A DNA stretch of 64,000 nucleotides from Raillietiella orientalis (Eukaryota): NCBI GenBank assembly GCA_036172245.1, contig JAYWIR010000051.1:1-64000 (forward strand), in the 5' to 3' direction. The translations under genes were made by a program, and so were the position numbers. How positions within the stretch are numbered: the stretch's first letter is position 1; every line of letters begins with the position of its first letter. Positions 4,046 through 49,693 of the stretch are shown here, one piece after another. The notes beneath the pieces are model-generated. The model saw nothing but the letters and a program-made list of their open reading frames with translations. It was not told the origin of the DNA and made no database searches.

Positions 4046-5920
4046 CACCAAATCCCCGGTGCAGGCGGTGCAAAGGGAAATCCTCGCAGAACTCGCGGAC
4101 CGAGATTTTCATGCGGTCCCAGTCTTTGAGGTTGCGGAGGATGACGCCTCTCAGGAACTGACGGAGATGTTCCGCCGCACCGGAGATGCGCGTCCAGTCC
4201 CCTGGCATACGCCACGCCCTGGATGGTGGTCCTTTGTCGCGTGACATAATTTCGATTATCAACCGGAAGTGGTCCGATAGCGTCGACGGAAGTTTCGCTC
4301 GTCTGCCGACACGTGGGCACAGGTCGGCGTCAAGAAAGACGTGGTCTACGCTTTGGGCCATTTCCGGTAGGTCTCCCAGCAAGTTGCGCGTACGCATAGC
4401 GGCGCACAACTCGTTGGTTGCGTCTTTTTGCCTGCAAGGCACACCTGAGAGCAGGCGGATGTTGAAATCCCCACCGATCAGATGTGCCTTGCGTACGTTT
4501 GTATCCGCCAGCCAGTCGCGCTTCAGGGTTTCGAGCAACCGGGAACGTTCCCCGTACCCGCGTCCTCCGCTCGGAGCGTACACATTAGTCACGACAAGGT
4601 CCATCGAGTCGGACCACGTAAGGATAAGCTGGCCAACCCGACCGTCCTTGTCGAATCCTACGTCCTTCACGAAGGAAGCGACCGCTGGCTTCATAAAAAA
4701 AGCGACGCCACAGGTGTTGCGAGCGCCGCATTGCCAAAACAGACGACCCCCTGCGATCCTTTCGATCTCCTGGGCGTTCTCCACGGTGATCACGTGGATC
4801 TCCTGCAGGAGTGCCAGGTCGAAGTCACGCAGGATGTCGTCCGTGTCCCGCCTGTTGCCGTCATCGCGCAGCCCGTTGACGTTCCAGCAGGGTACGCGTA
4901 TCCTACGGCGACAGGCGAGTCCAGGTCTTAATCCTGGGAAATTGGCAATGGTGCTCAAGCCACCTTGTCGGGCGGGACGCTAGGAGCAGGGGGTGCGTCG
5001 CGCACCGCTTCTCTCTCCTCCATGGAGGACGATTCGTCGTCGGAGCCTTGCAGAGGAAGTAGGGGTTCACTCACCTGCACATCCTCCTTCATGGGGGTCG
5101 CTAGCTGCACGGTGTCGGGGAATGAGATATTCCCACCCTCGCCTCCCACGCTGCTGGCTTCCCCCTCGGGGGCCGATTCATCCGCCTCCTTATTGATCCG
5201 GATGCGCCTCCTGGGATTCTGAGACTTACGTCCCGTCTTCTTTGGTGGCGCCTAATACTACTATGCTTCGACAACTCCTCATGGACGCTCGTTTTGTCCA
5301 TTGGGAGTGATACGCCTGTGAGGTGGACCACGATGGAGTGGTCCTCCGTCACAGGGAAGATCCTGAGGCCGTCCACCGTAATAGGGGTGTTCAGCAGTCG
5401 CTGCGGCAGACTTGCCTCTTTGCATGTTAGCTCAACTCGCTGGCCCCCACTAAGGACGGATAGGCCTAAAAGGTCTTTCTCCCTCACGTTCAACCTTTGC
5501 AGCCCCATTTCGAAGGAGCGTGCAATTTTTTCATCAAAATCAGTGCCTACCTTGTAGATCAGAGACGGCTTGTAGCCGCTGTCCTTGTAGGCAGTTTGCT
5601 CCGCTACTGCATCCGGGGATGGTGCAGCAACGACGTCACTCCAACTCCTCGCCTATGGCGAAGAGGGTCGCGAAGGGGCGGTTGCCCCCGATTCCGATGG
5701 GGCAAGTGCCCCGGATTCCGTGGGGGCGGATGCTTCCACTTTCATTGGTGGAGGAGAGCGTGTCGCTTCTCCTCCTCCAACTTCCATCGCGGTGTCCTCA
5801 GGCATTTCTGCCATGGGACACCGGTGCTCCCACACACCAGCCAACCAACGAAAAGCTTCCCACTAACCAGTCCGTGGAGCGATGCCATACCACGTCCGCT
5901 CCCTAGAACGACACGGGGAA
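4046..5920 (-). mobile_element. Family G 5' half: internally deleted ORF1 plus complete APE domain, cut at GFG
   Basis: ORF 3627-4958 carries WNVNGLRDDGNRRDT...SDH...RGFG; ORF1 ATG near 5815; knuckle region missing at about 5255-5270. Confidence 0.88.
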
Positions 5921-5921
5921 G

Positions 5922-6092
5922 TTTTCACCCGGTCACGCCGGGGCGTTTATTGTTAAACACTTTGTTTTAGCGGTACGAGGCCCCGCTACGGCCAATAGTT
6001 CTTTGAACCTGCCGGGAAGCCGGCTGGTAGGCCGGCTTGACTCTCCTCGGCAGCGGAGGGGGTAGGGGGTAAAAACGAAAAAAAAAATAAAC
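5922..6092 (-). mobile_element. 3' UTR and terminus fragment
   Basis: Reverse complement of AATAAACGCCCCGGCGTGACCGGGTGAAAA at 5922-5951, plus GGGGCCTCGTACC motif and T tract. Confidence 0.8.
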
Positions 6093-6094
6093 CC

Positions 6095-8515: not shown

Positions 8516-11494
8516 TTTTCACTCGGGTGAGCCGGGGCTTTTATTATTAAAATTTTTTAAAATACACAAAAAAAATTTCATAATAACGTAATGATTTGTT
8601 TCTTTTTGTTGTTGTTGTTCTTGTTCTTGTTTTTCAGTCGGGACATATTACCCGAATGGCTTGAGGCACTTGTCGTTACCGACCTGAAGGCAGATAAGGT
8701 CCTCTACACTGGCGAAGGGGTGCGGAAAACAAAAAATAAACAAAAAAAAGAAAACGCTTGGGGGGGCAATGTTCTTCGGGAGGGGGAGGGAAGGAAAGGA
8801 ATCACGGTACGCCGTGAGGAGGCCTTTGAATCCGGTCTCGGATGCGGACGAGTGCCTGAAAGTGTTTTCCAAGACGGCGCCAACGGCAGGCCTTCTCCAA
8901 GGAGATGGTTGCCCAGTGGATGGCATTCCGACTGGCATGTCCTCTCCTTGACGCGGTCCACTTGTCCAGTATTCCGCGTATGCAACAGAGCACTGCTACA
9001 TACCCGTAAGCTGGCAAGGCGTTCCGCATCAGGAGTCGAAATATGTTCTTAGGGTCGCCTAGCGGAATGTTCAAGATCGACGAGAGTCGGTCCCACATAT
9101 CGCGAAGGGCAACGCACTCAATTATTACGTGAGGACAGGTTTCCCTTTCCCCGCACTCTGCGCAGTTGTCATCCAACATTCCCCGATGTCTAGTGAGACA
9201 GGTGTGCTCTGCTTCAGAGTCCCTAATGGAGCAGAAGCAACGCCGTCTCCTGCCACTGCAGGGGAAGGGTGCCGTTATCCCACAACGCCGGGTGCCACTT
9301 CACCTCCTTTGGAGGTACTTCGAGCAGCGCGCCCCAGCGTGAAAGTTCATTCGGTGGGACACTCGGGGTACTAGCGTACGCTAGTTCCCGGTACATCCAC
9401 GCCTTCAATAATGTTTTCCTGCCTCCGATGAGGCAGGACACTTCCCACGATGCCTCCTGCTGGCTGTCCCGAACTTCCCTGAGGGAGGGCAGCACTGAGG
9501 CAAGGAGGGTAAAGGAGGCCCACAGAAGCTTCCGTGGGTTGCTGACCATCTCCTGCAGTGGCTGACTAGCGTACCTGCCTCTACGGAGGCAGGAGAAGTC
9601 CTCATCGCTGGAGCCGTTGATTTTAGCCCATGCGGAAATGGATTCCTGGAGCCAGGTAGTCCAGTCCACATGGATGCAGGAGATCCACGGATTGTCTCTC
9701 AGCAGGGCAACCAAGTCCAGCAGCTGAAAACCAAAGTAGTTAGGTCTGCGGTCGTTGGCTACTTGGATTGAGGTCAATCCATGGCAGCCGGTTGCCCAGT
9801 AAGCCAGGAGTCTTGACGGTGCACACCAGGGTGCGGTCCAGTACTTTGCCACAAGGGCAAGTTTACGGAATTGGAGCTGTTGCTTCATGCGCTCCAGCGT
9901 CAGGAGACCAAGTCCACCGTGCCTGCATGGAGCGCACAAGACTTTCAGACGGACGCGTAGCTTCCGATTTCCCCAGAGGTCTTTTCTAATGAGGCCCCTT
10001 GTCCCTTGACGAATCCGGGGAGGTATGGGGAATACAAAAAGTAGGAGGCGGAGGAGGGGGGCCGCAAAAGCGTTCCACACCGCGGCCCATTCCTGCAAGT
10101 AAAACTTGCCTTCCCGGAACGGGCCGATCGCCAACTCCACCTTGTGGAGTCGGTCGGATCAGGCTTCCGCAGCGCAGAAGTCCCTCAACGGAACGCCCAG
10201 GTACTTGAAGTACCCTTTTGTGGGGATCCCCAAGCGGATCCGGTCCGACCGTCCTGCTCGCGACGAGTCCGGAGAAATGATTGACGACTTCGCCCTGTTT
10301 ACCTCGTAACCCGTCCCATGGTTCAGCAACTCAAAGAAATCTTCGAGCGCCCATGCCAGGGTGAACCCGGGAAGCAGAAGCAAAAGGTCGTCGGCATAGG
10401 CCGACACGGCAAGCGTGCAGGGACAGGAGCTCGGCAGGGTTGCCAAAGTCTCCCTGTATGCACTCAGCACCAACTCAAATTAGATGCAGAAGAGCAGGGG
10501 GCTCAAGCTGTCACCCTGCCGGATGCCGCGACGAACCGGCACGCAGTACACGTGCCGGCCGCTGAAACCGATATTGATTGACGCGTTGCGCCAGCAGGAG
10601 CGCAGGTAAGATTGAAGCACGGCAGGGAAACCCATGCGTTCCAAGAGCTCCAGAAGGAGATCCTGGTCGACGCAGTCGAATGCTTTGTGCAAATCGACCG
10701 CGACGGCAAAGGCTCCCGCCGAGTCCATCCCACCCTCTGCCCGATCTTCTTGGTCAGAGGGGGGCGCGAGGCTCCCTTGACCGTCCTGTGCAACGCGTTG
10801 TCGCAACTGCCACCATGAGCTGGCGAGGAGCAGGTTGGCCTCCATGGTTCGTCCGGGAACAGCGTAAGTCTGTTCCGGACTGACCACGGATTCCGCTACC
10901 CGTCCCAGACGCTCAGTCCAGTGCTTGGTGAGCAACTTTGCGTCCACATTCACCACAGTGATAAGACGCCAGTTGCCAACGTTGCGCAAGTCTCCTCCCT
11001 TAGGGAGGAGAGGTACTCTAACTGACCGGAACGAGTTGGCGACATCCTCGCGTTCTCGGATCAGCAAACACAATTTGAGCACCAGGAGAGCCAACTCTGC
11101 CGCTAAGTGGAGGTAGAATTCAGCTGGCAGGCCGTCTTCCCCTGGTGCTTTGTTTTTTTTTAGTTTTTTGATGGCGGAGACAATCTCCGCCATCGTAAAT
11201 TCCAGTTGAAAAGTGTGACGTTCCTCCTCCCTTAACGCGGGAGCACCCTCTGGCAGGCGACGCTGCGCAAAAGGGCTCTCTGGTGTTCTCTTAGCGTAAA
11301 AAGAGGAGTAGAAATCCCGCAAAATGCAGCAAACCTGCGCTGGAGATGAGTGCTCCTGGCCTTCTTCGTCCGGTAAGCAGGCAGACCCGGATTGCCAGGC
11401 CTGCCTCTCAGCTCCAGCCTTGAACTCCGCCAGGCGACGGACGTCGGGCTTGTTGAACAAACGACGGGCCTAGGAATAGTTCCTCTCATGCGGA
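8516..11494 (-). mobile_element. Family T 3' two-thirds (linker, RT, zinc finger, terminus), with stops
   Basis: ORFs 10480-11460, 10159-10473 (YADD), 9223-10140, 8802-9179 (CAECGERETCPHVIIEC); terminus hairpin at 8516-8546. Confidence 0.9.
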
Positions 11495-13622
11495 AAAGGG
11501 AGCCTTAACGATCGCAGTCGACCTCCATGAGGCAACTCCTCTTGGAGCTCCTGGGTCGCATGAACTTCCCACCCTCCCTGATTTCCTACCTGCGCTCTTC
11601 CTTGCGGAACGCGATAATCTCGATTACTTTCAGTCGTCAAAAGGTATATGGCGTGCCGGTGCGGCGGGGCATAAGGCAGGGTGGCAGCCTCAGCCCCCTG
11701 CTCTTTAGCACCTACGCCGACTTGGTGCTGACAGCGTACAGGGTGACTTTAACCCCCTTGCCGAGCTCGTTCTCCGGCACGCCAGCCGTAGCAGCGTATG
11801 CCGACGATCTTCTGCTCCTCTTACCTATGTCCATTCCGGCGAAGGCGGTCGTAGAATTCTTCGACATGCTTAGCCGTGGGACCGGATTACAGGTTGACAG
11901 GGCGAAGTCGTCGGTGGTGCCAGTTAGAGCGGCGTGGGCAGGGCAGCAGGACTGGGTCCGTCTGGGGATCCCCACGGAGAGGTGCATCAAGTACCTTGGT
12001 GTGCCGTTGGGAAACATCTCCCCTGCGGAAGCGTGGTCCAGCTGCCTCCAAAAAGTCGAGAGGGAGATCGGCCCGTTCCTGGAAGGCAACTTTCACTTGC
12101 TAGAAAGGGTCGCGGCTTGGAACTCCGTCGCGGCCCTATCCTTCGCCCCTTGCTTTTTGTTTGCCCCGCCCCCGTGGAATCTAAAAAGCAGACGAAGAAT
12201 CTCCTCCGCATAGCCCTTTCGGGCAAGGGGAGGCCCCGAGTCCCTTTCAAGGACTTGTGCGCTCCGCGTCGAGACGGCGGTCTCAGCAACCTGACGCTGG
12301 AGAGCGTGGAAATCCAGCTGCGATGGCGAATTCTCGCCATCGCAGCGAAGATGTGGAGCACCGCTTGGTGCGTTCCGACCCGCCTCCTGGACAGGCGTGT
12401 GTCCCGCTGCGAAGGACTCGCATCGTTTCTTCTGATCCCTGGCCGGAAGATTCGAATATGCGGTCTACTGCTCGGCCGCATGGCAACCCTGGCGAAGGAA
12501 AACGACTGGATGGTTCGTGGCCCCGCTAACTCCTCCGCTTGGCTGGAGAAAACTGCTGGCACCTGGGCCAAGAAGAACCAAAGGTGCGAAGACCCGATGA
12601 ACTGCCTCCGATTCGGCTTTGACGCCCGCCGAACTCTGCGTGAAATTCTTGAATTTCCATCGAGTTGCACGTGGGCGGAAGGGACACCCCTTGTTACGGC
12701 GATGCCCTTCTTCCAAAGAGCGCTTCACGAAAGCCGGAAGCCAAGGTGGAAAGTCTGCTGCCGTATCGCAGGCAGAGAGAAGATGATGCGCGGCTGGACC
12801 ATGGGAGAGTTGACAGATGCAACGACCCCTAGTTTCCAGCTGCGTGGATTAAGAAGATGGGGCGAGCTGCTCGGCATTCGATTTGATGTCCTGAAGTGGC
12901 CCCCGGTTCTACTTGGATCCAGGATTCTTCCCCTGAAGTGGCGAGAATCGGCGCTTCTGTGGCTGCATTGGGGTCTACCCTGCAACGCGCGCCGCTTCCA
13001 CTGGACTCGGGGAAGAGTAAATCCTGCGTGTGCCAGGTGTGGGGAGCGGGAGTCGCTTACCCACCTCTTAGTTGAATGCCCTGCTGTCCGGATTCTTTGG
13101 GATCGTCTTAAAACGGCACTGGGGATACCGGATGGTGGCAATGTTGGATGTGTCTACAGTCTTGTCTTCGTGCGGGACGCCCTCAGTCCAGCCGCAGCCC
13201 TGGCAGCACTTTGCTGCAATCGTGGTATCGTGGCCGCCTGGAGTGATGTCGAAGATGAAGACTGCATCGTGAGGGACGTCATCGAGTATGCTTCTTGCTT
13301 CCTGCAGAGAGCTACCCGATGGCCCCTTCTGAGAAAAATAAAAATGGAACTCGAAGGCATCCTGCAAAGGATGTGCTTTCCCAGTATTTGTCTGTGTTTC
13401 CTTCCCAGCCCTCGAAACTTCTTTTGTTGTTTGTTTTTCTCTTCTTATTTCATTTTTGTTTGCTTTCCCATCCCCTTCCACTGCCGAGGAGAGCCACACC
13501 GGGCTGCTTCCCGGTGTCCCGGCAGTTGCGGTATTGCGTGGCCGTCAGTAAGGCCTTGTACCACGTTCTGTATTGACTGTATTAATGTTTTCAATAAACG
13601 ACCCAGCGTATCCGTGTGGCAT
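11495..13622 (+). mobile_element. 5'-truncated G-like copy (RT to terminus)
   Basis: ORFs 11527-12213 (YADD) and 11934-14090 (CARCGERESLTHLLVEC); terminus AATAAACGACCCAGCGTATCCGTGTGGCAT ends 13622. Confidence 0.88.
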
Positions 13623-13631
13623 CACGAAAAG

Positions 13632-16346
13632 TCGGTGTGGGTGGACGTGTTTCTTGGTCGCTCCACCAGCGCTTGTCTGGGAAGCAACCGCAGTTTGTGC
13701 AGTTTGGTGTCAAGTGTGGGTCGTAGGTGTCCAATGGCAGCCGTGCCGGAGGACACCGCGATGGATGTAGTCGTAAGGGAGGCAAGTCCTCTCACACAAC
13801 CTACAGCAATGGGGGCAACAGTCCCTGGACCGTCCTTTCAGCCGGCGAAGACTTTTAGCGAAATGATCGCCGCCCCCAGTGCGGAGGCCTTGGCGGAGGA
13901 ATCCGCCTATCGGGCCTGTGAATACAAGCCATCGCTTGTATACAAGGTAGGCCTTTGGTTGAGGAAAACACGGCGCACTCTTTCAGCAGAGCGCTTCAAA
14001 ATGCTAATGTCCGTGAGAAAGATCTGGAAGGTCTGTGCATGCTCAGCGGGGCGCAGCGCGTTGAGCTGGTGTGCAAGAGCATCAGCCTAGCCGATCGCCT
14101 GATAAATACCTCGCTGATCATGGACTGCTGTAAGATCTTCCCGGTGTCAATGGACCACTCGGTAGTTGTCCACTTGACAGGGATATCTAAGCGCACGACG
14201 CTCACTGCCGTCAAAGAAGAATTAAGTAAGTACGGGGACGTACACGCGCTGTGGCCGAAGCCCACAATATTTGAAGGCTACGGACGTCACTTCGGGGGCC
14301 TCGCCGCGGGACGTGTAACCTCAATAGACGAAGCGAAGGTTCCCCACAAACATGAGGTCGCGGGAGAACCGGTAGACCTCTGGTATGCGGGCAAGCCACG
14401 CTATTGCGGCTACTGCGATGCGGTCGGACACATCAGAAAGAGGTGTCCAATCATCGTATGCTACTTGTGCGGGGAGAAGAAACACGTCTTTCGTGTGTGC
14501 CCTAAATGCCCCACCCCGATTCCTTTGGCCGCCAAAAAGGCGCATGGGAAACGCGCGGGGAAAGAAAAATTGGAAAACCGGGTAATTGGACGAGAAAAGC
14601 TGCCAATAACCCAAGCTCCAAGCGCGACGTCAGAGAAAAATCTTCCCAAAACCGCAGAGGGAGAACAGGGCTGGCAGCTAGTCGAAGCAGAAAAAAAGAA
14701 AAAGGACAAGCATGTCCCGAAGAAAGGAGAGAAGGCGGCGGCCGGAACAAAAGCTCAATCCGTGTCGCGCGTAAAAACTCTCCGAGAATGCACGGTTACG
14801 CTGGAGCGCATTGACGTTCCCGCCGACACCACCGGAGGCCATACGGCTTCGATCGATTTTCCCGCCGCGACGAATGCGCGCAAAAAGAGTGTTAGCCGGG
14901 CAACAAACTCGCCGAAACCGAGGACGCAGACTTCGAGAAGGCCGCGGAGGAGCTTGCGGCAACGCTTGCCGAACGCGGGAACCCCTCGCGGAAGAGGCTG
15001 CTTAGACCGGCAGCAGCTAAAATGGCCCCCGCAGGTGAGTCGGAACGGGAGGCCGGAAGTGCATCCTCCTCTGCGGAAGCACCACCAAGAAAAGCAGGAC
15101 GAAAATCCCAGAAACCCCGAAGGTGCATTTTGCTTCCGCTCGAGGGGGATGCAATGGACGAGGAACCAGTGGATGGCAGCGTTGGAGCCCAAGTCGGGCA
15201 TCACCCACGGGCGGAAGCCGACGAGGAGGCGACTTCAATGGAGGGGGGTACTTAGGGGTCAGCAATGCCCCCTGAAACCGCCGTACCTGAATCACCCGCA
15301 CCAATGGATGTGGGCCAACAGGTACGAACAACACCCCCTTCGCACGAGCAGCCGGAGACGTTGGCACGTAAGAAGGATGGGGAGCTGGTGGGCAATACGC
15401 CAACCCCGTCCAGCGATCCGCCCAAAAAGGTGGCGGGAGCCCCACCGCCAAATCCCCAGGAATAACCCCTGGACTCGCCTGTCTCCATCGGATCCGCGCG
15501 GACAGTTGGAATGTCAACCCGCTGCGCGACGACGGAAACAGACGGGACACAGCCGCCACCTTGCGAGATTTCGACCTGGTGCTTTTGCAGGAAATCCACG
15601 TGATCACCGCAAAAGACGCCCAGGAGATCGAAACGATCGCGGGGGGCAATTGTACTGGCGATGCGGCGCCCGCAACACCTGTGAGGTCGCGTTCTTTCTA
15701 AAGCCAGCCATTAACGCGGCCGTGAAGGGAGTGCGCTTTGGGGACGACGGACGGATCGGCCAACTGACCCTCAGATGGTCCGATTGGATCGACCTCATCG
15801 TCACCAATGTGTGCGCTTCTAGCGGTAAACAAGGGTACCAGCAGCGCAACGTGTTACTGGAAACCATGAAGCGCGAATGGCTGGTGGACACGGACGTGCG
15901 AAAGACGCTACTGATAGCAGGGGATTTCAACGTCCGCCTGCTCTCAGATCAGCCCGGAGCACAGGGGAACGCGATCAACGAGTTGTGCGCCGCCATGCGC
16001 GCGCGCAATTTGTTGACAGAAATACAGGGGATGGTCAGCAGCGTGGACCACGTCTTCCTCGACGAAGACCTGTGCAGACGGGTCGAAAAACGAGGGACAC
16101 TTGGATAGACGCCGTCGGACCATACCCGGTTATTATTCGCGTTGCGTCCGCGCGACAAGGGACCGCCATCCAGGGATTGGCGTATGCCAGGGGACTGGAA
16201 GCGCCTCTCAGGAGCGAAAGAACATCTCCGCGAATTCCTGCGACGCGTCACCCTCCAGAATCTCGCGCATTAGGACCTATTCAAGGACTCGGTCCGGGAG
16301 TAATGCGAGCAGTTCCCTATGCAACGTCTGTGACGGGGATTCGGCG
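13632..16346 (+). mobile_element. Family G 5' half: ORF1 (ATG 13734, stop 15465, frameshifted) and APE, cut at GFG
   Basis: 5' motif at 13644; CGYCDAVGHIRKRC; GDFN and VDHVF; ends GGATTCGGCG. Confidence 0.88.
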
Positions 16347-21941: not shown

Positions 21942-22158
21942 TTTTCACCCGGGTACGGCCGGAACGTTTATTGAAAAAACTCTGCATAAACCTGGTACGA
22001 GGCCCCACTAACGGCTACACAACACCGTACCTGCCGGGACGTCGGGACGCAGCCCGGCGTGACCCTCCTCGGCAGTGGAGGGGGATAAGGATCAAAACAA
22101 AAAGAAAAATAAAGATATGAAAAGAAAAACAAAAAGAGTTTGGAGGGAGGGGAAGGGA

Positions 22159-25100: not shown

Positions 25101-25755
25101 CCGACAGCGTCGACGCTACTTTGCCCCGTTTTCCGACCCGCGAGCACAGGTCGACATCCAGGAAGAAGTGGTCGATGCTGCGGTCCATTCCCTCCGCGTC
25201 TGCCAACAAGTTGCGCGTGCGCATGGCAGCGCACAACTCGTTGGCCGTGCGTTCTTGTGCTTCGGGCTCACCTGACAGCAGACGGAGATTGTAGTCTCCA
25301 GCTATCAGGTGTGCCTTCCGCACATTCGTGTCGGCCAGCCAATCGCGCTTCAGGGTTTCCAGCAGCCTGCTACGGTCGCTGTATCCCCCTTTTCCGCTCG
25401 GGGCGTGCACGTTCGTGACGATCAATTCGATCGAGTCGGACCAGCTGAGAATCAGCTGACCGACCCGACCGTCGTCATCAAAGCGTACGCCCTTCACGGC
25501 AGCGTCGATGGCCGGCTTGACGAAGAACGCGACCCCGCAGGTGTTGCGGGCGCCGCATCGCCAATACAGTCGACCCCTTGCGATCGCCTCAATCTCCTGG
25601 ACGTCTGCCGAGGTGATCACGTGGATCTCCTGCAGCAGGGCCAGGTCGAAGTCACGCAGGGTGTCGGCCGTATCTCGTCTGTTGCCTTCGTCGCGCAGCC
25701 CGTTGACGTTCCAACTGGCCACGCGGATTCGACGGCGACAGGCGAGCCCAGGTGT
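22159..25755 (-). pseudogene. ORF2 (APE-RT-zinc finger) with several stops and frameshifts
   Basis: Pieces 24946-25722, 23020-24591 and 22222-22914 are colinear with ORF2 at 54161-57748. Confidence 0.88.
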
Positions 25756-27506
25756 TATTCCTGGGAAATCGGCTGTGCGGCGTCCGCCACCTGTTGGGGC
25801 GGGACGCTAGGTGGAGGAGGAGGGACAGGTGCCTCTAGCACCTGGTCACCCTCTTCCATCGGTGACGGCGCGTCGGGCGGTTCACCCTCAGGTGGGGTCG
25901 CGCCTACCTGCTGGCCCTCCTCCATTGGGGTGGGCTCCTCAGGGTCCGCGACGGCAGGGGGGATTACGCTCCCCTGCTCACCCTCCTCCATGGGGTTGTC
26001 CTGCTCGACGGCTTCCGCGCGTGGGAGCTCCCCCTCCGGGATTACCACGCTGTCGGCGACTTCCTGCTTCTCCTCCTCGCTCGTGGAGGGGAGGCGCTTC
26101 CTCGGGTTTTGGGACTTGCGTCCCGTCTTCCAGGGGGGTGCCTCCGTGGAGGAGGATGTACTCCCGGCCCCCAGTTCTAACTCACCTGCGGGGGCCTTCT
26201 TTACTGGAGCCGGCCTCCGCACGGCCTTGCGCGAGGGGTTCTCACGCTCAGCCAGCGTGGCCGCGAGCTCCTCCGCCGCCTTCGCGAAGGCGGCGTCCTC
26301 GCCGGTGGCGAGCGCGTCGCGCGTCTCACCCTCTGTGCAAACAGAGGGTTCGCCGTCGCGAACCTCGGGCGCGGCGGAAACGGCGAGGGTAGGCTCGTTG
26401 CCCCGGGTGGCAGCCTCGGGAACGCTGATGCGCTTTAGTGCTACCGAGCACTCGCGGAGAGTTTTAGATCGCGGGCCTGGTTTTTTCGCCTTCGCGACCG
26501 TCTTTTTCTCCAGCTTCTCTTGTGAACCCTTTTTGGGTTCTTTTCTGGCCTTTACCAGCGTCCATCGTTCTTCCTCGCCCGCGTCTTTCGCGGTTTTTTC
26601 CGCCGCCGCCTGGGTTGGAGGAGGAGGAGAAGGCTGCTGGGGCCGGCCATTCTCGCGATGAGGTCTTTCGACCTTATTCATTTTTTTCGTCTGTGCCCTT
26701 TTGGCAGCAGGTGGCACCGGGAAGGGGCGTTTAGGGCACACTCGACGGACGTGTCCCTTTTCCCCGCACAAGTGGCACTCGATATTCGGGCACCGCCTGT
26801 GCACATGCCCCACTGCATCGCAGTAGCCACGATAGCGGGGTTTCCCCACGTACCAGAGGTCGACTGGCTCCTTCCCGAACTCCAGTTTGTGGGGTAACTC
26901 AGCACTCTCGTTTACAGTGACACGCGCTGCTGCCTGGCCACCAAAGAGGCTGTTATAGCCGTCAAAAATGGTTGGCTTTGGCCACAGCGCGTGCACATCT
27001 CCGTATTTCCTCAATTCCGCGTTCACCGCAGAGCGCGTCATGCGGTTCGTGATCCCCGTTAGATGGACCACTACGGAGCGGTCCATGCTAACGGGTAGGA
27101 TCTTTCGGCCAGCCACATTCAGCGGGGTGTTGATGAGGCGCTGCGCTAGGGCTACGTCTTTGCAGACGACCTCCACGCGTTGCCCCCCGCTGAGTACGGC
27201 GAGGCCGTCAAGATCCTCCTCACGCACGGGGAATTCCTGTAGTGTCTTGCTAAAGGCACGCGCGGTGCGACCGTCGAACAGGTTTCCTACCTTATAAACC
27301 AGGGATGGTTTATATCCGGAGGCCCTGTAGGCCGCTTGCTCAGCCAAGGTTTCCGCGCTCGGCGCGGCTACCATGGCGCTCCAGCTCCGAGTCTTGGGCG
27401 ACGAGGGCGATTCCGGGGCGGATACCCCTGATTCTGTAGGTCGTGGGGGGGGGCTAGCCTCCCTCACGCCTGCCTCCATCGTGGTGTCTTCTGGCAGCGA
27501 TGCCAT
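25755..27506 (-). CDS. ORF1 gag-like nucleic-acid-binding protein, 583 aa, open
   Basis: MASLPEDTTMEAG start shared with other copies; knuckles (R)GYCDAVGHVHRRC and CHLCGEKGHVRRVC; low-complexity C-terminus. Confidence 0.85.
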   Translation of the reverse strand: MASLPEDTTMEAGVREASPPPRPTESGVSAPESPSSPKTRSWSAMVAAPSAETLAEQAAYRASGYKPSLVYKVGNLFDGRTARAFSKTLQEFPVREEDLDGLAVLSGGQRVEVVCKDVALAQRLINTPLNVAGRKILPVSMDRSVVVHLTGITNRMTRSAVNAELRKYGDVHALWPKPTIFDGYNSLFGGQAAARVTVNESAELPHKLEFGKEPVDLWYVGKPRYRGYCDAVGHVHRRCPNIECHLCGEKGHVRRVCPKRPFPVPPAAKRAQTKKMNKVERPHRENGRPQQPSPPPPTQAAAEKTAKDAGEEERWTLVKARKEPKKGSQEKLEKKTVAKAKKPGPRSKTLRECSVALKRISVPEAATRGNEPTLAVSAAPEVRDGEPSVCTEGETRDALATGEDAAFAKAAEELAATLAERENPSRKAVRRPAPVKKAPAGELELGAGSTSSSTEAPPWKTGRKSQNPRKRLPSTSEEEKQEVADSVVIPEGELPRAEAVEQDNPMEEGEQGSVIPPAVADPEEPTPMEEGQQVGATPPEGEPPDAPSPMEEGDQVLEAPVPPPPPSVPPQQVADAAQPISQE

Positions 27507-27622
27507 CGGACACCAACGATGTGAAAAAGCACACACTGAACCAAAAAAAAACCGCTTTCCGCTGCTCGTTCGCGGAGCGCCGGAAAAACACCGCCGTTCG
27601 CGAAGCGCCGCTCTCGAAAAGA

Positions 27623-28545
27623 GGGAGTTGGGGAGGGTCCGCGTAACGAAAGGTGCTATCTTCAGGCCCGACATTACGCGAGAACCCCCGACATGCGCAG
27701 GTTAGCAGACTATCGAGCGGGAGCCGAGAGGCAAGCCTAGCAATCCGGGTCGGCTAGCTAGCTGGACGACCAGGGTCGGAAGCACTTGGCTCCTGCTCAG
27801 AAGCGCGGCATTGTGAAGAAATTTTACTCCTCCCTGTACGCCAGGGCGCCTCCGGAGAGAGACGTCTCACGACTTCTGCTTCCGGAAGGTGCTCCAGCGA
27901 TCGTGGAAAAGGAGAAAAGAAGCCTCGACGAGCCTTTCACGATGGACGAGATCCTCTCGGCCATCGGAAAGCTCAAGAGGCGGAAGGCTCCAGGGGAGGA
28001 CGGCCTGCCCGCGGAGTTTTACCAAATTTCGCGGCAGAGCTTACCCCTCTGGTACATCAGCTCACCTTGCTGATTCGCGAGACAGGTGACGTTCCCACCT
28101 CGTTTCGTTCAGCAAATCTGCGGCTCCTCCCGAAGGGAGGAGACCTAAGGAGCATGAACAACTGGAGTCCCATCACAATAGTGAATGCGGACGCCAAGTT
28201 GATAGCCAAGATGTGGGCAGAGCGTCTGGAACGGGTTGCCAACATCTTCATCAGCCCGGAACAGACTTATGCGTTTCCCGGGCGGAGCATGGAGGCGAAC
28301 CTGTTCCACGCTTCCACATGCTTAGAGCTCCAACAAGGAAGGAGCATAATAAGCAACCGGAATTCCGGTGCGTCCGTCGGTGGGCGACAGGATGGTCGGG
28401 AGGGGAGAGGAGCCCTCGCGGTCGCAGTCGATTTCCATAAAGCATTCGATTGCGTCGACCAGAATCTCCTTTTGGAGCCTCTGGAACGCTTGGGCTTCCC
28501 GGCCTCTTTGCTGGGCTAACTGCGCTCCAGCTGGCGATTCAACGG
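27623..28545 (+). mobile_element. Continuation of the 19331 element (linker and RT N-terminal half)
   Basis: GEGPRNERCYLQAR...KAPGEDGLPAEFY...VDFHKAFDCVDQ. Confidence 0.85.
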
Positions 28546-29595
28546 GCAGATGTTCGTCAGCCAGGGAGAACGGAACACGCAGGGTGTGGCGGTCCCAATC
28601 AAGAACAACTTGGGCCCCACTATTCTCGAAGTGTTCTGTCCCCAGCCCGGACGAATCATCGGCGTGCGACTGGCCTGGTCCGCTACTGTTCACATCATCC
28701 TGGTGAACCTGTACGGGCCGCACAGGCTGAAACATCGTTGTGCGGAGGCGTTGCATGCACCACTCCGTAAAAAGGTAGCCCCCAAGGACGTCGTGATTGT
28801 GGCTGATGATCTCAACATATTGGATGAGATCACTCACTCCCAAGACGTCAGAGGAAGGACAGCGTGTCGGCGGCTATCCGAAGAGTTCGGACTGGTGTGG
28901 CGAACTGCAAGTCACAAGCCGATCGATCACGTCCTGCACAGCACCGAACTTGGGAATCGCATCCAGGGTTTTAGAGACATTATGACCACGGTGTTCGATC
29001 ACCACCTGGTGCTGTTTTCCCTAAGAACGGAGAATCCTCGGCAGAGGCAAGGCACCAGGGCGGCGCTCATCAGCATACCCACCTGGTTCGAAATCCATCC
29101 CAGACATCAGGCTGTCCTTGAAACGATTCTGAAGGAAACAACAATCCGAAGAGTCGCCGACTGGGACAGCCTGAACCACAGGATACACCTGTTAGCAAAC
29201 ATGCAGTTCGGGGATAGGCGCTTGAGGCAGAAGGCGTACCGGGAGCTGAACATCTAAGATCGCTTACTCTCAAAGTACTTCGATCAGTACGACAGTCGGT
29301 AAGTCCTCAAGAACATAAAAGGGGAAGTCGGCGTGCTGGAGAAGAGAAATATGGCGACAGATATCTTCAGCATCCAGTACGATGGTCAAAAGCGACAGTC
29401 GTCTGAGGACATCGTGGATGCCTTTCACAGGCATTACACGAAACACTTCAGGCGACAACATCTCTGTCGCTCTAGTCAACAGGCTTTTCTGAGCTACCTC
29501 GAGAAGAGGACCGACGATCTCCAGCGGAACAGACTGGAGGAGGAGTTCTCCGAAGATGAGGTGAAGACTGAGTTTGGTCAACTACGCAAGGACGT
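28546..29595 (+). mobile_element. Fragment of a divergent LINE ORF2 (APE C-terminal part and linker)
   Basis: ORF 28550-29257 has degenerate APE motifs GVAV, VNLYGP, ADDLN, IDHVL, FDHH; ORF 29333-29632 has linker-like LEEEFSEDEV. Confidence 0.7.
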
Positions 29596-31760: not shown

Positions 31761-34700
31761 TCGGCTACAGCCGACGTGTTTCCTCGGTGCTCCTTGTGCC
31801 GGGAACCGTCTCTAGGTGTAGGATTCGTGTGTGGTGGTGGTCGATCACGCAGCAATGCTTGACACGACCACCAGTGCGTGTCAGGGGGCGGTGGCAACGT
31901 CGCCTCCTGAAGAAATGGAGTGCCACGTGGCGGCGGCAACTTCGCCTATAGAGAAGGTGGAGTGCCAGGAGGCGGCGGCAACGTCGCCTTCAGTGGCGAA
32001 GGAGGTGGGGGCGTTCTCCCCCACAAAACCGTTCCCCGCTGCAGCGCGGGAGTGGAGCGCCCTCGTGTCGGCGCCATCGCCTGCAGCCGCGGCGCAATTA
32101 TCTGCCTATGTGGAAGAGGGGTATAACCCATCACTATTCTACAAGGTAGGAAATTTGTTTTCTTCTGAGAGTGCGTTCGCCTTTTCGAAGGGGATGCGCG
32201 CTCTCGATGTTAAAGAGGAGTTCTGCGCTATGACCATTCGTAGCGGGGGGCAGTACGTAGAGGTGATCTGCAAACATGCAGATCTGGCCCAACGTCTGCT
32301 TAAAACCCCCGTGGTAATGGGGACACGCAGGCTCCTTCCCGTTACGGCGGACCACAGTATGGTGGTCCACCTTTTAGGAGTTACCGCGCGGATGCGGAAA
32401 GAACAGTTACGCGCCGCGTTGGGAAAAGAAGGCACGGTCGATGCAGTATGTACCAAGCCTAGTCCTTTTGAGGACTATACCACAGTTCAATGCGGCTTCA
32501 CGGCTGCCCGTGTAACCGTTCGGGAGGGCTCTACCCTTCCCCACAAACAGCTGGTCGGCGAAGAAAGCGTCGATCTCTGGTACGTGGGGAAGCCCAAATA
32601 CTGTGGCTTCTGCAACACGTCGGGACACCTTAAAAGGAGGTGCCTTAACGTACAGTGCCAGGTATGCGGGACAATGGGCCACACGAAGGAAGTGTGTCCA
32701 CAATCCGCTGTGCGCGTGGTTTCCGCGAGGAACCTTAAAAAACGCGCGCGGCTGCTACAGAAAAGGCTGGCGGCGAAGGCTCCTGCCCAAGCTATGCCAC
32801 CCACACCCGTGGTCCAGGCAGCAGCCGACACCCCGGCAACGAATGCCGAAAACATCGACAAAAGCGGTCAGGTGCCGGAATGGCAAGAAACCACAGCGAA
32901 AAAGGAAAAGTCGAAGAAACAACGACGAATTGAAAAAAAGCTCGCTTACCAAAATAAAAAACAGCAGGTTAGCGAGAATTTAAAAGAATGCACCGTCGTC
33001 GTGGAACGCGTTCCCGCCGAACGTCGCAAGGTAGAAATCGCTGCTACCGACGAGCACTGTTGAAAATGTCAACAGCGTGGGGAGCGAACCGGCGGAAGCG
33101 TCCGTCATTGAGACCGTGATCGATGACGCCGCCTTCGAGCGTGTGGCGGAGGAGCTGGCTGCATCGCTGCAACCAGACCCCTTCAAGGCTGGCAAAATGG
33201 CAGTGAGGCATCAGGCTTCCAAAGAGGAGTCGGTAACTTCCGACCCCGAAGCGCAGGCCGGAAACTAAGTTTCCATCTCCGCGGCACCCCGCCGGAAGGC
33301 TGGAAGGAGGTCCTGCAAACCCCGGAAATCCCCTCTCCAGGTCGAAAACCTGGAGATGACTTCCGACTGCGAGCGTGCCATGAGCGTGGGAGAATCGCGG
33401 GAATCGTCACCCGAGAGGCCACCACGCACAGACACGGAAGAGATGGAGGGGATTGAAGCCGGAAAGGTAACCAAGGTGCCTGAGGAGGCTGAAACCCTAA
33501 TGGTCACCTCACCCGCCTCGGAAGCAACGGGTTCCTCCACACCGTCATCTTCCCGGCAGTAATGCCGGGAATCTCTCCCGCCGTCGTCTGCACATCGCCG
33601 TTTGGAACGTGAACGGGATGACAGACGCCAGCAGGAGACGTGACATGGCCGCCATTCTAGGATCGTTCGACCTTGCGCTGCAGCAGGAGATCCATGTGAT
33701 CTCTGCAGAACAGCCGCAGGAGATCGAACGCATCTCCGGAGGGCGGCTGTGGTATCGGTGTGGAACATCGAGAAGTTGTGGTGTCGCCTACCTGCTTCGG
33801 CCCGCCATTCAGGCCGCCGCCCGTGGAGTGCGGTTCGACGATCACGGTCGTGTCGGCCAGCTGACTCTCAGTTGTTCCGACTCGATCGACCTGACCGTCA
33901 CGAACGTTTACGCCCCGAGCGGAGCGCACCTGAGGAACAGGAGGGCCAGGAAAGAATTTTTCGTTGCCCTCCATCGCCACTGGTTGACCGAGGCAGGCGT
34001 GCGGAATGCCCATCTGGTTGCAGGCGATTTTAACGTTCGTCTGAAACCGGATGGGCCGAATCATGAGCGGGACCTGGTCAACGAGGTGTGCGCGGCGGTG
34101 CACACTTGTAATTTGTTGGCCAGTGTACCAGGGATGGAGGAGAACATCGATCACGTGTTTCTTGACCGGCACCTGTGCACTCGTGTGGGCAGGCGCTGCA
34201 AGTTACCGTGCGAGTTGTCCGACCATCGACCAATCGTGATTGAAATCCATCCGCGCGACAGGGGCCCCTCCTCGTCAGTGTAGCGTTTCCCAGGGGACTG
34301 GCTGAAGCTCACGGGCGCGACGGAACATATCCGCACGTTTACACGGAGCTTTAGGATGCAGACACTTTAGGATTGGGACCGCTTCAAACGGACGGTCCAG
34401 GAGTTCTGCGACCAGTTCCCTCTGCACCGCCTACCTGCGGGATTTGGGGACGGCGTACTTAACGAACGAGCCTACCAGCAGGCTCGCCGTTACGCCAGGA
34501 CCCCCGACATTCGTAGGCTGGCGGAATACAAAGCGGGAGCCGAGAGGCAAGCCTGGCAGTACGGTTCGACCACCTTCCTCGACGATCAGGGCAAGGAGCA
34601 GTCGGCACCTGCCCAAATCCGCGGTCTGCTGCGGCGTTTTTACTCCTCCCTGTACGCAAGAACGCCTCCCGAGCGGGATCTCTCGCGAATCCTGCTTCCG

Positions 34701-37367
34701 GAAGGCGCTCCTGCGATCGGGGAAGAGGAGAAAAAGTCCATCAACGAGTCTTTCACGATGAGCGAGATCATCTCGGCCATCGGAAAGCTCAAGAGGCGAA
34801 AGGCTCCAGGGGAGGACGGCCTGTCCGCGGAGTTTTATCAAACTTTCGCGGCTGAGCTAACCCCCCTGGTACATCAACTCACCTTGCTGATACGCGAATC
34901 AGGTGACGTTCCCGCCTCGTTTCGTTTGGCAAAGGTGCGGCTTCTTCGTAAGGGAGGAGATCTGAGGAGCATGAACAACTGGCGTCCCATCACAATAGTG
35001 GATGCGGACGACAAGTTGATAGCTAAGGTTTGGGCTGAGCGCTTGGGACGCGTTGCAAACGCCTTCATCAGCCCGGAACAGACGTATGCTGTTCCGGGGC
35101 GAAGCATGGAGGCGAACCTGTTCCACGCTTCCACCTGGCTAGAGCTCCAACACGAAAGGGGCTTGATGCGCACCAGGAATTCCGGTGAGTCCGTCAGTCA
35201 TGCGATGGATGGTCGGATGGGGGAGAGAGCACTTGCGGTCGCTGTCGACTTGCGTAAAGCATTCGACAGCGTCGACCAGAATCTCCTGCTGGAGCTTTTG
35301 GAACGCTTGGGCTTCCCGGCCTCATTAGTGGCCTATCTACGCTCCTGCTGGCGCGATTCGCAAATCAATGTTACCTTCAGCGGGCATACTGTTCACGGCG
35401 TGCCGGTGCGACGTGGGAACCGGCAGGGAGACAGCCTGAGCCCCTTGCTCTTCAGTACCTACGTTGAGATGGTACTGAGAGCGTACAGGGAAACTCTGGC
35501 GCACCTGCCGCATGAATGCGCCGGAACGCCTGCGGTGTCAGCATATGCGGACGACCTTCTGCTACTGCTTCCGATGTCCACCCCGGCTTTGGCGGTCGAG
35601 AAGTTCTTCGACCTGCTGAATCAAGGGACCGGGCTAACCGTGAACAGGGCGAAGTCGTCCGTGATGCCAGTTGGTGCGGCGTGGGTAGGGCAGCAGGACT
35701 GGGTCCGTTTGGGGATCCCCACGGTGAGGTGGATCAAGTACCTCGGTGTGCCGTTGGGGGACTTCTCCCCTGCGAAAGCTTGGTCCGGCTGCCTTCAAAA
35801 AGTAGAAACGGCTATCGGCCCGTTCGGAGGCGGCAGGTTTTTCCTGCCTGAACGGGCCGCGGTTTGGAACATGTTCGCGGCTCCTCTCCTCCGCCCCTTG
35901 CTTTTTGTTTGCCACGCCCTCGGGGAATCTAAAAAGCGGACAAAGGACCTCCTCCGCATAGCTCTTTGGGGCAAGGGGAGGCCCCAAGTCCCTTTGAAGG
36001 ACTTGTGCGCTCCGCGTCCGGACGGCGGTCTCAGCATCCTGACGCTGGAGCGCGTGAAAATCCAGCTGCGATGGCGGACCCTCGCCATCGCAGCGAAGAT
36101 GTGGAGCACCGCTTGGTGCGTTGCGACCCGCCTCCTGGCCAGGCGTGTGTCCCGCTGCGAAGGACTCGCATCGTTTCTTCTGCGCCCTGGCCGGAAGTTT
36201 CGAAGAAGCGGTCTACTGCTCGGCCGCATGGCAACCCTGGCAAAGGAGAACCACTGGATGCTTTGTGGCCCTGCCAACTCCTCCGTTTGGCTGGAGGAGA
36301 CTGCTCGCACCTGGGCCAAGCAGAACCAGAGGTGCGAAGACCAGATGAACTGCCTGCGAGTCGGCTTTTACGCCCGCCGAACTCTCCGTGAAATTCTTGA
36401 ATTTCCACCGCGTTGCACGTGGGCGGAAGGCACACCCCTTGATACGGCGATGCCCTTCCTCCAAAGGGCGCTTCACGAATGCCGGAAGCCAAGGTGGAAA
36501 GTCTGCTGCCGTATCGCAGGCAGAGAGAAGATGATGCGTGGCTGGACCATGGGAGAGTTGACAGATGCAACGACCCCTAGTTTCCAGCTGCGTGGATTAA
36601 GAAGATGGGGCGAGCTGCTCGGCATTCGATTGGATGACCTGAAGTGGCCCCGGTTCTACTTGGATCCAGGATTCTTCCCCTGTAGTGGCAAGAATCGGCG
36701 CTTCTGTGGCTGCATTGGGGTCTACCGTGCAACGCGCGGCGCTTCCACTGGACGCGGGGAAGAGTAAATCCTGCGTGTGCCAGGTGTGGGGAGCAGGAGT
36801 CGCTTCCCCACCACTTAGTTGAATGCCCTGTCGTCCGGATTCTTTGGGATTGTCTTAAAACGGCACTGGGGATACCGGATGGTAGCAATGTTGGATGTGT
36901 CTTCAGTCTTGTCTTCGTGCGGGACGCCCTCATTCCAGCCGCAGCCCTGGCAGCACTTTGCTGCATTCGTGGTATCGTGGCGGCCTGGAGTGATGCCGAA
37001 GATGAAGACTGCATCGTGAGGGATGTCATCGAGTTTGCTTCTCGCTTCCTGCAGAGAGCTATCCGATGGCCCCATCTAGGAAAACTGAATATGGAACTAG
37101 AAGGCATCCTGCAAAGGATGGGCCCTCCCTGCAGTTTTCTGTGATCCCTTCCCGGCCCTCGAAATCTTTTTGTGGTTTGTTTTTATCTTTTATTTTATTT
37201 TTGTTTTCTCCCGCATGCCCCTCCACTGCCCAGGAGAGCCACACCGGGCTGCGTCCCGGTGTCCCGGCAGTTCCGGTATTGCGTGGCCGTCAGTGGGGCC
37301 TTGTACCACGTTCTGTATTCACTGTTGAAGTGTTTTTAATAAACGTCCCGGCGTATCCGCGTGGCAT
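31761..37367 (+). mobile_element. Full-length-sized element, chimeric (family K 5' part, G-like 3' part); ORF1 31855-33562, ORF2 33562-37144, both disrupted
   Basis: ORFs 31831-33063, 33609-34283, 34758-36767, 36917-37144; 5' motif at 31773; terminus ends 37367. Confidence 0.88.
31882..32000 (+). repeat. About 3 copies of a 42-bp repeat in ORF1 N-terminus
   Basis: AVATSPPEEMECHV / AAATSPIEKVECQE / AAATSPS. Confidence 0.7.
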
Positions 37368-38749
37368 CGCCGAAACCTGGAGGGAGACGGTTCAGGGGAA
37401 ACTGGTCGCAGAACTCGAGGACTGAGCTCTTCAAGTCGTCTTAGTCCGCGAGCGACTGCAGATGGAAGCCTTGCAGGAACGAGCGAAGATGTTGAACTGC
37501 TCCTGCGAGGCGCAACCAGTCCCCTGGCAAACGCCACGCTGTGGAGGGTGGAGCTCTACCGCGCGGGTATATTTCTATCACGAGCCGGGTATGGTCGGAA
37601 AGTTCGGATGGCACTGCCCCTCGATTTCCCACCCGCGAACACAGGTGGTTGTCCAGGAACATGTGATCGATCCTCGTCTCCGTTTCGGCGTCACCGGCCA
37701 ACAAGTTGCGCGCGTGCATGGCAGCGCACATCTCGTTGACCAGCTGTGCGCGAATGTCGGTCGCACCTGCCAGCAGGTGGACGTTAAAGACACCGGCAAT
37801 GAGGTGCTCCTTTCGCATGTCTAGTTCGGCCAGCCAATCTCGCCGCAGGCCTTCGAAGAACGCCATGCGTTTCCCGCGCCTGTGGCTCGTTCTGGGCGCG
37901 TACACGTTGGTCACGACGAGGTCGATCGCGTCGGACCACTTGGCAACAAGCTGCCCGATTTGACATTCCCCGTCGAAGTGCACGTCGCGCAGCGCATTAA
38001 CGACGGCTGGCTTCAGCATGAAAGCCACACAGCGGGTGCGGTCTCTCCCGTTGTCGTATATGAGCCGCCCGCCTGCGATCCGTTCGATTTCCTGGGCCTC
38101 CTCTGCTTGGAGCACGTGCGTCTCCTGCAGAAGCGCCAGGTCGAAGTCCCGCAGGCTGGCGGCCACTTCTCTCCTCTTGCCGTCGTCGCGCAACCCGTTG
38201 ACGTTCCAACAGATTACGCGCAGTCGCCGGCAGGAGGAGAGTCCACGCGTTGGTGTGTTTATGGTGTTTGCTTCCCGTCCTCCGCCTGCTTTTCAGCAGG
38301 CGGGAGTTGTGTGTCCATTGCGAAGGGGTTTTCCTCGCAAGGAGGCGGTCCGTCGGTGGTTGTGGTGGTGGTTGGAGGATCCTCCTAGGCCAGGGACGCC
38401 TCCGGCGAGGAGTCGCGAGACATCGCGGACATCGCCTCCCCGTCGTCGTGGTCCGACCGCATTTCCTCCTCCGCCGGTGGAGGTGCGGAGCGCCGCGGAT
38501 TGCTACCTTGTGGCCCGCTTTGCGCTTCGGGAGAGCGACAGACGGAGCGTTGCCGGATACGGCTTCGGACTCGGAAGTCTCCGGTCCTTTCGCTTCAGCC
38601 GGACGCCTCAAGGCCTTCTTCTCGGCCTTGGGAGGTTGCTGGAGCATGACTGCCAACTCTTCCGTTGCCTTATTGAAGTCCCGGTCGTCGCTGCTCACGC
38701 TGGGCTCGCGACTTTGTCGCAGCGTCGGCGTTCGCGTGGCGGCGGGACA
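37368..38749 (-). mobile_element. ORF1 C-terminus and APE, cut at GFG (same family as 6650-8515)
   Basis: ORF 37441-38193 (LQETH, NVYAP, IDHMF, SDH); RRPAEAKGPETSESE shared with ORF 6914-7330. Confidence 0.87.
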
Positions 38750-49679: not shown

Positions 49680-49693
49680 CACAAGGCGGTCGA
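49680..49693 (+). repeat. Isolated 14-bp target-site copy (CACAAGGCGGTCGA) between two tandem K elements
   Basis: 13/14 match to CACAAGGCGTTCGA (HKAFD codons); flanked exactly by a K 5' end and a K 3' tail. Confidence 0.8.

Follow-up and report, generated by a model that had tools for sequence, protein, structure and literature searches.

Several long interspersed elements (LINEs) that encode an apurinic/apyrimidinic endonuclease (APE) are target-specific, among them R1, TRAS, SART and Keno, the last of which resides in U2 small nuclear RNA (snRNA) genes, and sequence-specific LINEs are also known for one DNA transposon. One paper places most target-specific families in the early-branched, Tx1 and R1 groups, gives RNA genes, microsatellites and telomeres as the targets of APE elements of the Tx1 and R1 clades, describes 3' boundaries as precise and 5' boundaries as variable, and regards the targeting of multicopy sequences as a low-harm strategy (PMC4640811). 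According to three further papers, Zepp targets existing copies by nested insertion (PMC8226300), Cnl1 of Cryptococcus inserts within itself in tandem orientation (PMC9942834), and the endonuclease of human LINE-1 (L1) nicks a loose TTTTT/AA consensus (PMC8565326). Here we analyze one 64-kb window of DNA from Raillietiella orientalis (positions 1 to 64,000 of contig JAYWIR010000051.1, assembly GCA_036172245.1), to which all counts, trees and occupancy figures below are confined. The window consists almost throughout of related L1-like retrotransposons without long terminal repeats (non-LTR elements) nested within one another, and our analysis suggests that one of their lineages, clade G, inserts at a single nucleotide next to the Gly-Phe-Gly (GFG) codons that lie between the APE and the reverse transcriptase (RT) of resident elements, including members of its own clade.

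The elements of the window share with the Tx1 and R1 LINEs that they are APE-type non-LTR retrotransposons with a 3' junction fixed at one nucleotide of a multicopy target, and their domain set, a CCHC motif in open reading frame (ORF) 1 together with APE and RT, is compatible with that group. Within the window, separate insertions fall on one exact 3' junction of a repeated target (four exactly and a fifth probably), as in a target-specific LINE. What differs is the target, a motif in the coding sequence of LINE ORF2, the element's own family included, that is always entered in antisense and is no RNA gene, microsatellite or telomere. Multicopy RNA genes of the type used by R1, R2, Keno and Utopia do not describe it, as the flanks are LINE ORF2 coding sequence and a scan of the 64 kb against Rfam at gathering score returned no family and no RNA gene. 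Zepp and ZeppL of green algae resemble the window, by description only, as nests of LINE within LINE, the window containing many 5'-truncated copies and three head-to-tail joins. It differs from Zepp in the coexistence of several lineages, two of them with different exact sites, and in a single-nucleotide antisense target within a coding motif, which the available text on Zepp does not give, although such a Zepp target may exist in print. The arrays of Cnl1 are tandem, with copies in the same orientation, and subtelomeric, whereas the insertions in the window are antisense, separate APE from RT within ORF2, and affect families besides their own. With human LINE-1 ORF2p, the closest solved protein chain (E=8e-44 over the RT), the ORF2 of the window shares the order APE-RT and the logic of target-primed reverse transcription (TPRT) with target-site duplications; unlike human L1, which uses poly(A), the window elements lack poly(A), carry a conserved palindrome at the 3' end and use a G-rich site of 10 nt. 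In the searched literature, as far as its text was available, no LINE is reported with an exact antisense one-nucleotide target in a conserved ORF2 coding motif of its own and other families, nor are two sister families with different ORF2 codon-motif sites of this kind. The targeting described below is well supported in this window by sequence comparison, and would add a coding motif of LINEs themselves to the targets of target-specific APE LINEs.

Results and discussion

First, four 3' termini in the window adjoin host sequence that reads exactly GGN TTY GGN G, with the last host bases at 4046, 16346, 21941 and 37368 (Table 1). This reproduces the central claim of an earlier note on this DNA, which had placed the four junctions after the same nucleotide. 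The antisense 3' tail of the insert follows directly in each case (TTGCCACCCGG, TTATCACCCGG, TTTTCACCCGG and ATGCCACGCGG after hosts A, B, C and D, respectively), with an ambiguity of 1 nt at 37368, and likewise at the 13622 junction discussed below, where the final T of the tail could be the complement of the next A of the host. All inserts at GFG are antisense to the host ORF, an orientation that the strand notes of the earlier reading implied and that is now explicit. The hosts differ at synonymous positions, as had been claimed, with GGA or GGT, TTT or TTC, and GGT, GGC or GGG at the three codons. Host sequence of the same GFG site is present on both sides of inserts C and E only. At insert C the two copies of the reported 11-bp duplication agree at 10 of 11 positions, and host C is continuous across the insert and reads on in frame as GVGEGPRNER. 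In addition, one clade G copy (52053-57955) was said to occupy another site, and indeed it lies at about amino acid (aa) 525 of ORF2 in a host of a second family, b, between 15-bp duplications (CCAGCAACTTGGCGT at 52038-52052 and 57956-57970). These two duplications, together with the 5'-truncated copies A, B and E, are what TPRT would be expected to leave.

Table 1. Coordinates of hosts, inserts, junctions, target sites and element ends in the window. A slash marks the junction or predicted nick position.
Feature	Position	Strand	Description
5' starts	529, 1882, 1925, 5897, 46413, 49669	-	5' start motif
5' starts	13643, 19339, 31773, 52055, 59764	+	5' start motif
b 5' end regions at motif A	1882-1939; 46413-46430; 31757-31773		
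Insert A	1939..4045	+	clade G, RT-to-3' part; tail ...CCGGGTGGCAA; interrupted upstream, at RT motif A, by a b-family copy with its 5' end at 1925
Host A	4046..5897	-	5' untranslated region, ORF1, APE up to GFG; APE in clade G
Host A junction	4055..4046	-	GGATTTGGTG/; nick after base 4046
Host E, RT side only	8517..11494	-	clade Y; own hairpin tail ends near 8517
Insert E	~11488..13622	+	clade G, sister of D 3' part; 5'-truncated near ORF2 aa 605; tail ...GTGTGGCAT
Remnant	13623..13642	-	CACGAAAAGTCGGTGTGGGT; 20 nt at insert E 3' end; probable degenerate GFG site
Host B	13643..16346	+	5' start GGACGTGTTTC, ORF1, APE up to GGATTCGGCG/; APE in clade G
Host B junction	16337-16346	+	GGATTCGGCG/
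Insert B	16347..19338	-	clade G, sister to insert A; 5' truncation near ORF2 aa 300; tail ...CCCGGGTGATAA; own GFG site 19237-19246 empty
Host C, 5' part	19339..21941	+	ends GGATTTGGGG/; APE in clade b; duplication copy 1, GGGATTTGGGG, at 21931-21941
Host C junction	21932-21941	+	GGATTTGGGG/
Insert C	21942..27622	-	full-length clade G, 5,681 bp; tail ...CCCGGGTGAAAA; own GFG site 24873-24882 empty
Host C, RT side	27623..28552	+	starts with duplication copy 2, GGGAGTTGGGG, at 27623-27633, then AGGG...
Insert D, 5' two-thirds	31773..35900	+	b-like; 5' end adjoins RT motif A of Y-clade host y29
Insert D, 3' third	35900..37367	+	clade G; tail ...CCGCGTGGCAT
Host D, APE side	37368..38292	-	ends GGTTTCGGCG/; own lineage in APE tree
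Host D junction	37377..37368	-	GGTTTCGGCG/
Empty GFG site	34440-34449	+	b-like part of D
Empty GFG site	41467-41476	+	
Empty GFG site	58299-58308	-	
Empty GFG site	62665-62674	+	
Second target, z39	38995..39010		RT motif A of the host, ...AAAGCGTTCGA/, with 38999 as last base; antisense b tail from 39000
Second target, z49	49670..49704		motif-A-like 24-nt spacer ...AAGGCGGTCGA/ (49670-49693); b tail from 49694
Off-site clade G copy	52053..57955	+	antisense in b-family host; own GFG site 55034-55043 empty
Reference copy ORFs	ORF1 52093-53133; ORF2 54020-57133	+	ORF2: APE, then RT

Second, the use of this site follows clade membership. In a maximum-likelihood tree of the region from the RT to the 3' end (11 rows; fragments too short for the region were left out), clade G (support 100/100) unites inserts A and B, the 3' part of D with E, insert C and copy 52053-57955, and the other groups are b (z49), Y (host E and y29) and K (k47 and el41). 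In a tree of the last 550 nt, two further 3' fragments, F and f5, fall weakly near G, whereas z39 groups with z49 and y62 with y29. GFG is used by 5 of the 6 tree-supported G termini and by 0 of 8 others (Fisher p=0.003); with F and f5, whose placement is weak, added to G the comparison becomes 5/8 against 0/6 (p=0.028), and for the four exact cases only it gives 15/1001 = 0.015 by hand arithmetic. A coincidence of five, in which four or more of 7 other G-type ends fall on the same nucleotide, has a probability of approximately 1.7e-15 under a null that is uniform over 6 kb and two strands, or 1.4e-13 with a tolerance of +-1 nt, and about 2e-11 by hand arithmetic for the four exact cases only, which excludes chance under this null.

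Family b uses a site of its own, in the RT motif A with its residues Lys-Ala-Phe-Asp (KAFD). Both b-type 3' termini lie there, compared to 0 of 12 others (p=0.011): the sequence before the junction reads ...GCAAAGCGTTCGA/ in the host of z39 and ...CAAGGCGGTCGA/ at z49 (49693), where the other side of the spacer is the b 5' end at 49669. Moreover, four b-type 5' ends (1925, 46413, 49669 and 31773), whose hosts belong to clades G, K and Y, are found 13-26 nt upstream of the motif-A nick position, and eight motif-A sites are intact. A near-identical 25-nt stretch, CCCTRGAGC.C.CAAGGCG.T.GAC, stands beside the 5' end in three of the four b copies and may be target sequence carried in the transcript. 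The clade b APE has a 2-residue insertion after NVYAPSG, one difference among the clades. Because b uses its own precise site and not GFG, the comparison indicates that the targets are family-specific and do not mark a general fragile spot. A weak point of this kind in LINE DNA, prone to structure or nicked by the host and usable by any retrotransposon without element-encoded specificity, might be suspected from the orientation of the inserts, which is antisense to the host at 12 of 12 readable junctions, including those outside GFG and motif A (p=2.4e-4; f5 and the own tail of host E are excluded from this count), and thus hints at a strand-wide bias. We nevertheless consider it very improbable, as none of the eight non-G termini uses GFG, b has a different exact site, and the bias may partly reflect survival, with direct-orientation nests lost by recombination, seemingly at D. 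The bias itself could stem either from a strand preference of the nick site or from such losses.

Third, the junctions are independent events, and their hosts come from at least four lineages in the APE and RT-to-3' trees, which bears out the claim that different families were hit. In the APE tree (10 rows, with the short fragments 6651-7034 and 44464-44733 left out), hosts A and B fall into clade G together with copy 52053-57955 and insert C, so that G does insert into its own family, as the earlier note had stated. Clade b takes in host C, the 5' part of D and the b-family element into which 52053-57955 is inserted; host D forms a lineage of its own, el41 and el62 make up clade K, and host E belongs to clade Y in the RT-to-3' tree. 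Alternatively, one ancestral composite of host and insert could have multiplied as a whole, whether by segmental duplication or by retrotransposition, in which case the four junctions would go back to one event. Self-alignments do run unbroken across the junctions, as expected of composite copies (for example 1939-4998 against 18427-15397 at 80%), and inserts A and B, like the 3' part of D and E, are sisters. However, an unbroken alignment is expected as well when homologous hosts are hit independently at the same nucleotide, and therefore does not show common descent. A single duplicated composite fails because identity is 84% (path 0.20) between inserts A and B but 74% (path 0.41) between their hosts, which are not sisters; host A is nearest to copy 52053-57955 (80%), and the contrast between inserts and hosts reaches z=6. 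Regional rate differences cannot explain this contrast, because in the control pair of 52053-57955 and insert C the trend is opposite and the APE is the less diverged region (82%, compared to 77% from the RT to the 3' end). In addition, the 3' part of D and E, 88% alike overall, sit in different hosts; hosts C, D and E fall into clades other than that of A and B; no two inserts agree in length or 5' end (insert C is full length, and B and E are truncated at different points); and the continuous host around insert C carries a separate duplication. The trees of hosts and inserts thus contradict one duplicated event, one of the two outcomes that the earlier note had named as refuting its claim, and we regard such a composite as extremely unlikely.

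The element that ends at 37367 requires a separate account. It had been taken for a G insertion, and its 3' junction does belong to a G part, but the whole is a chimera of b and G and not a single insertion. In a sliding-window comparison, D up to about 35860 is 84-93% identical to a b copy and 66-87% to E, and beyond the switch it is 83-98% identical to E and 44-73% to b; the parents change near 35860-35950, in the most conserved part of the RT. The RT side that matches host D is probably y29 (29596-31772, minus strand), and the 816 bp between GFG and motif A, present in an intact element, are missing at host D. On these sequence comparisons, D is best explained by one Y-type host with two antisense inserts, one of b at motif A and one of G at GFG, between which homologous recombination deleted the interval. 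A single insertion with an 816-bp target deletion was rejected on account of the parent switch at about 35900 and of the two ends, each of which lies at the site typical of its parent. The 37368 junction still counts as a G event, although the object is not one insertion.

Insert E is a probable fifth GFG event. Its 5' end is the junction at about 11494, for which a position within about 10 nt of the site had been proposed, and in agreement with this the homology to host E starts about 8-11 nt after the nick position. At its 3' end, the 20-nt remnant, which borders the 5' start of host B (13643), resembles the antisense GFG flank of host A with a score that 6 of 2000 shuffles reach and the flank of host C with a score that 52 of 2000 reach; its resemblance to the flanks of hosts B and D is not significant in such shuffles. 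The arrangement suggests that host E probably took two successive insertions at the same site, the later one using a duplicated copy of the target.

Several points weigh against targeting by clade G. Inserts A, B and D provide evidence at the 3' junction only, the junction of D sits on a chimeric element, and the 3' flank of insert E is only 20 nt long and resembles hosts A and C but not B and D. The tree-supported G copy 52053-57955 and the G-like tails F (6649) and f5 (5922) sit elsewhere. The window has 10 occurrences of the 10-mer GGWTTYGGNG (mean of 3.58 in shuffles, 3 of 100 of which reach 10), eight of them at the homologous GFG position, with four sites occupied and four empty, and two at non-homologous, unoccupied positions (14910-14919 and 15446-15455, minus strand). 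The site also has variants, with GGC TTC in clade K and GGGA in one b copy. Because 7 of the 12 homologous sites (Table 1) and the two other 10-mers are empty, the 10-mer is insufficient or insertion is far from saturating. Moreover, the evidence comes from a single 64-kb window, and the link between the nick and the APE is an inference. Even so, we consider it quite likely that clade G displays real, sequence-specific and family-specific targeting of LINE coding motifs.

The observations on where the junctions lie, how the inserts are oriented, which duplications flank them, their restriction to one clade and their independence lead us to propose the following model. Clade G would be an L1-like, APE-encoding lineage that integrates by TPRT at a specific sequence, nicking the sense strand of a resident ORF2 after GGN TTY GGN G, that is, after the Gly-Phe-Gly codons of the APE-RT linker and one further base. 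The freed 3'-OH would prime cDNA synthesis from the exact 3' end of the element (AATAAAYG, the CCCGG...CCGGG palindrome and TGRNAA, with no poly(A)). Because a nick in the sense strand primes cDNA from the 3' end of the element, the new copy would always lie antisense to its host and would split the host endonuclease from its RT. A cut of the second strand 11-20 nt upstream would lead to the duplications of 11 and 15 bp, and to one of about 17-20 bp at host B, whereas a cut a few nucleotides downstream would lead to the loss of 8-11 nt at insert E. The target would be a conserved coding motif that selection keeps in all LINE lineages present, G included; since it is kept in all of them, every LINE copy would be a potential landing site and nests would pile up. 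We believe that specificity would be set by the element's own APE, and that the RT and the 3' hairpin would fix the start point.

The precision could also arise mainly from base pairing, a mode that has been proposed for some ribosomal DNA (rDNA) and telomere elements. Read-through transcripts would then anneal to a new GFG target, and the endonuclease would be loosely specific. The absence of poly(A) and the exact 3' junctions are in line with this, a read-through flank CNCCRAANCC would be fully complementary to the nicked strand GGNTTYGGNG, and the spacers of 20-24 nt at the head-to-tail joins (13623-13642, 5898-5921 and 49670-49693) fit a reuse of duplicated targets. However, AATAAA lies approximately 26-28 nt ahead of the element end in 14 of 14 tails, a position which suggests that transcripts end where the element does and that the RT recognizes the conserved palindrome and not poly(A); copy 52053-57955, at its other site, shows the same exact terminus although it has no GFG flank; and pairing leaves the location of the nick unexplained. 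We therefore regard pairing as an unlikely main source of the precision and favor the APE in this role. The tails themselves, 14 of which share a relaxed pattern (ATAAA, CCCGG...CCGGG palindrome, TG and 2-4 A), are nearly identical among clades G, b, Y and K, with AATAAA, an 8-nt gap, the palindrome, TG and 2-4 A but no poly(A) (for example 4016-4045, 57926-57955 and 8517-8544). Covariation supports 0 of 3 predicted pairs of this palindrome, but its sequence is nearly invariant, so that RNA pairing is neither supported nor refuted.

Extending this to both families, related LINE lineages may have divided conserved ORF2 codon motifs into private sites, with the Gly-Phe-Gly linker for G and the Lys-Ala-Phe-Asp motif A for b, both in antisense. 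We offer this tentatively, as a reading that is possible but that we stop short of favoring. If it is true, the LINE population would be its own rDNA-like safe harbour, in which each new copy disables an older one, and nested clusters would perpetuate themselves, possibly like those that form LINE-based centromeres in some algae; G and b, close relatives with differing targets of 10-12 nt, would be a natural swap pair for mapping how an APE reads its target. If the targeting extends to the whole genome, it would provide a simple sequence-level mechanism for the growth of LINE-only clusters and for competition and turnover among LINE lineages, with each hit parting a resident endonuclease from its RT. 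It would also provide two related APEs with long, distinct targets, which would be useful for understanding and perhaps re-aiming target recognition. Targeting of GFG by G predicts CNCCRAANCC as the flank next to most clade G termini, and targeting of motif A by b predicts TCGAACGC next to most b termini.

A public DNA run (X1), compared at 80% likeness, yielded 551 mapped contig pieces and shares 0.11 of sampled words with the window. Of its 387 loose ends and 26 joints, 6 and 15 were listed, respectively, and none of those listed bears on position 55043, which neither supports nor contradicts the targeting. One X1 contig joins 57950, in a tail like that of copy 52053-57955, to position 59024 in a b-family APE, with AGAA between them, and this is the same join as that of el41 and b at 44495 in the window. 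Because the contig repeats this join, run X1 probably comes from this genome or from one very near to it.

Other features of the window

The GC content of the window is 56-62%. Its 76 stop-to-stop ORFs of at least 200 aa include 10 with an APE domain (PF03372) and 13 with RVT_1, as well as one with a CCHC knuckle and one with a sub-threshold zf-RVT. In the most complete copy, 52053-57955 on the plus strand, which served as coordinate reference for the nucleotide and protein mapping of all fragments, the 1038-aa ORF2 contains PF03372 (E=4e-12, 46.7 bits, cutoff 24.5) and, downstream of it, the RT domain PF00078 at residues 511-780 (E=6e-21), and ORF1 contains the zinc knuckle PF00098 (23.7 bits, cutoff 20.8). 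For the zinc-binding domain PF13966, looked for C-terminal to the RT, the score of 21.3 bits lies below the cutoff of 27.5. The elements are thus L1-like, APE-type non-LTR retrotransposons with a CCHC motif in ORF1 and APE and RT in ORF2. A protein search returned four matches, the best a fragment with 66% identity and none named as Tx1, and a protein-cluster atlas returned generic APE-RT clusters only. A metagenome scan for the 3' tail pattern gave no match, and one with the ORF2 alignment gave five loci at 25-35% identity only.

Many copies share a 5' start motif, GGACGTGT(T/C)T...GCTCC, and at three places a 3' tail is joined head to tail, across a spacer of 20-24 nt, to the next 5' start (13622/13643, 5922/5897 and 49694/49669). 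A 43-bp tandem duplication (1840-1925) spans the junction between the b 5' end and motif A of insert A and carries the start motif at 1882 and 1925. ORF1, a low-complexity middle part and the start of the APE form one open frame at 13922-16105 (+, 728 aa) and at 25758-27701 (-, 648 aa), and the same three parts lie in three different frames in copy 52053-57955. The ancestral element may therefore have encoded one polyprotein, with copy 52053-57955 being frameshifted.

Two G-like 3' fragments, f5 (5922-6091, minus strand) and F (6089-6649, plus strand), stand head to head and are 71% alike, and F adjoins a host APE at about aa 140. Twin priming was rejected for this inverted pair, since a 3' terminus is present on each piece and their likeness is only 71%. 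By eye, the flanks of f5 (5898-5921) and of the tail of host E (8484-8516) show conflicting likenesses to GFG, motif A and the neighbouring APE.

An APE-like stretch at 28541-29200 (+), only 24% identical to the reference ORF2, represents a much more distant LINE lineage in the nest. Two 3' parts of clade Y (29591-30753 and 62839-63998) are 95% identical and have different flanks, one at about aa 475 of ORF2 of a distant element and the other at about aa 400 of el62, which suggests that clade Y was recently active without a shared exact site. Finally, an A/T-rich low-complexity stretch at 8545-8615 of host E, in a window that is otherwise rich in GC, lies just upstream of the 3' tail of this host.

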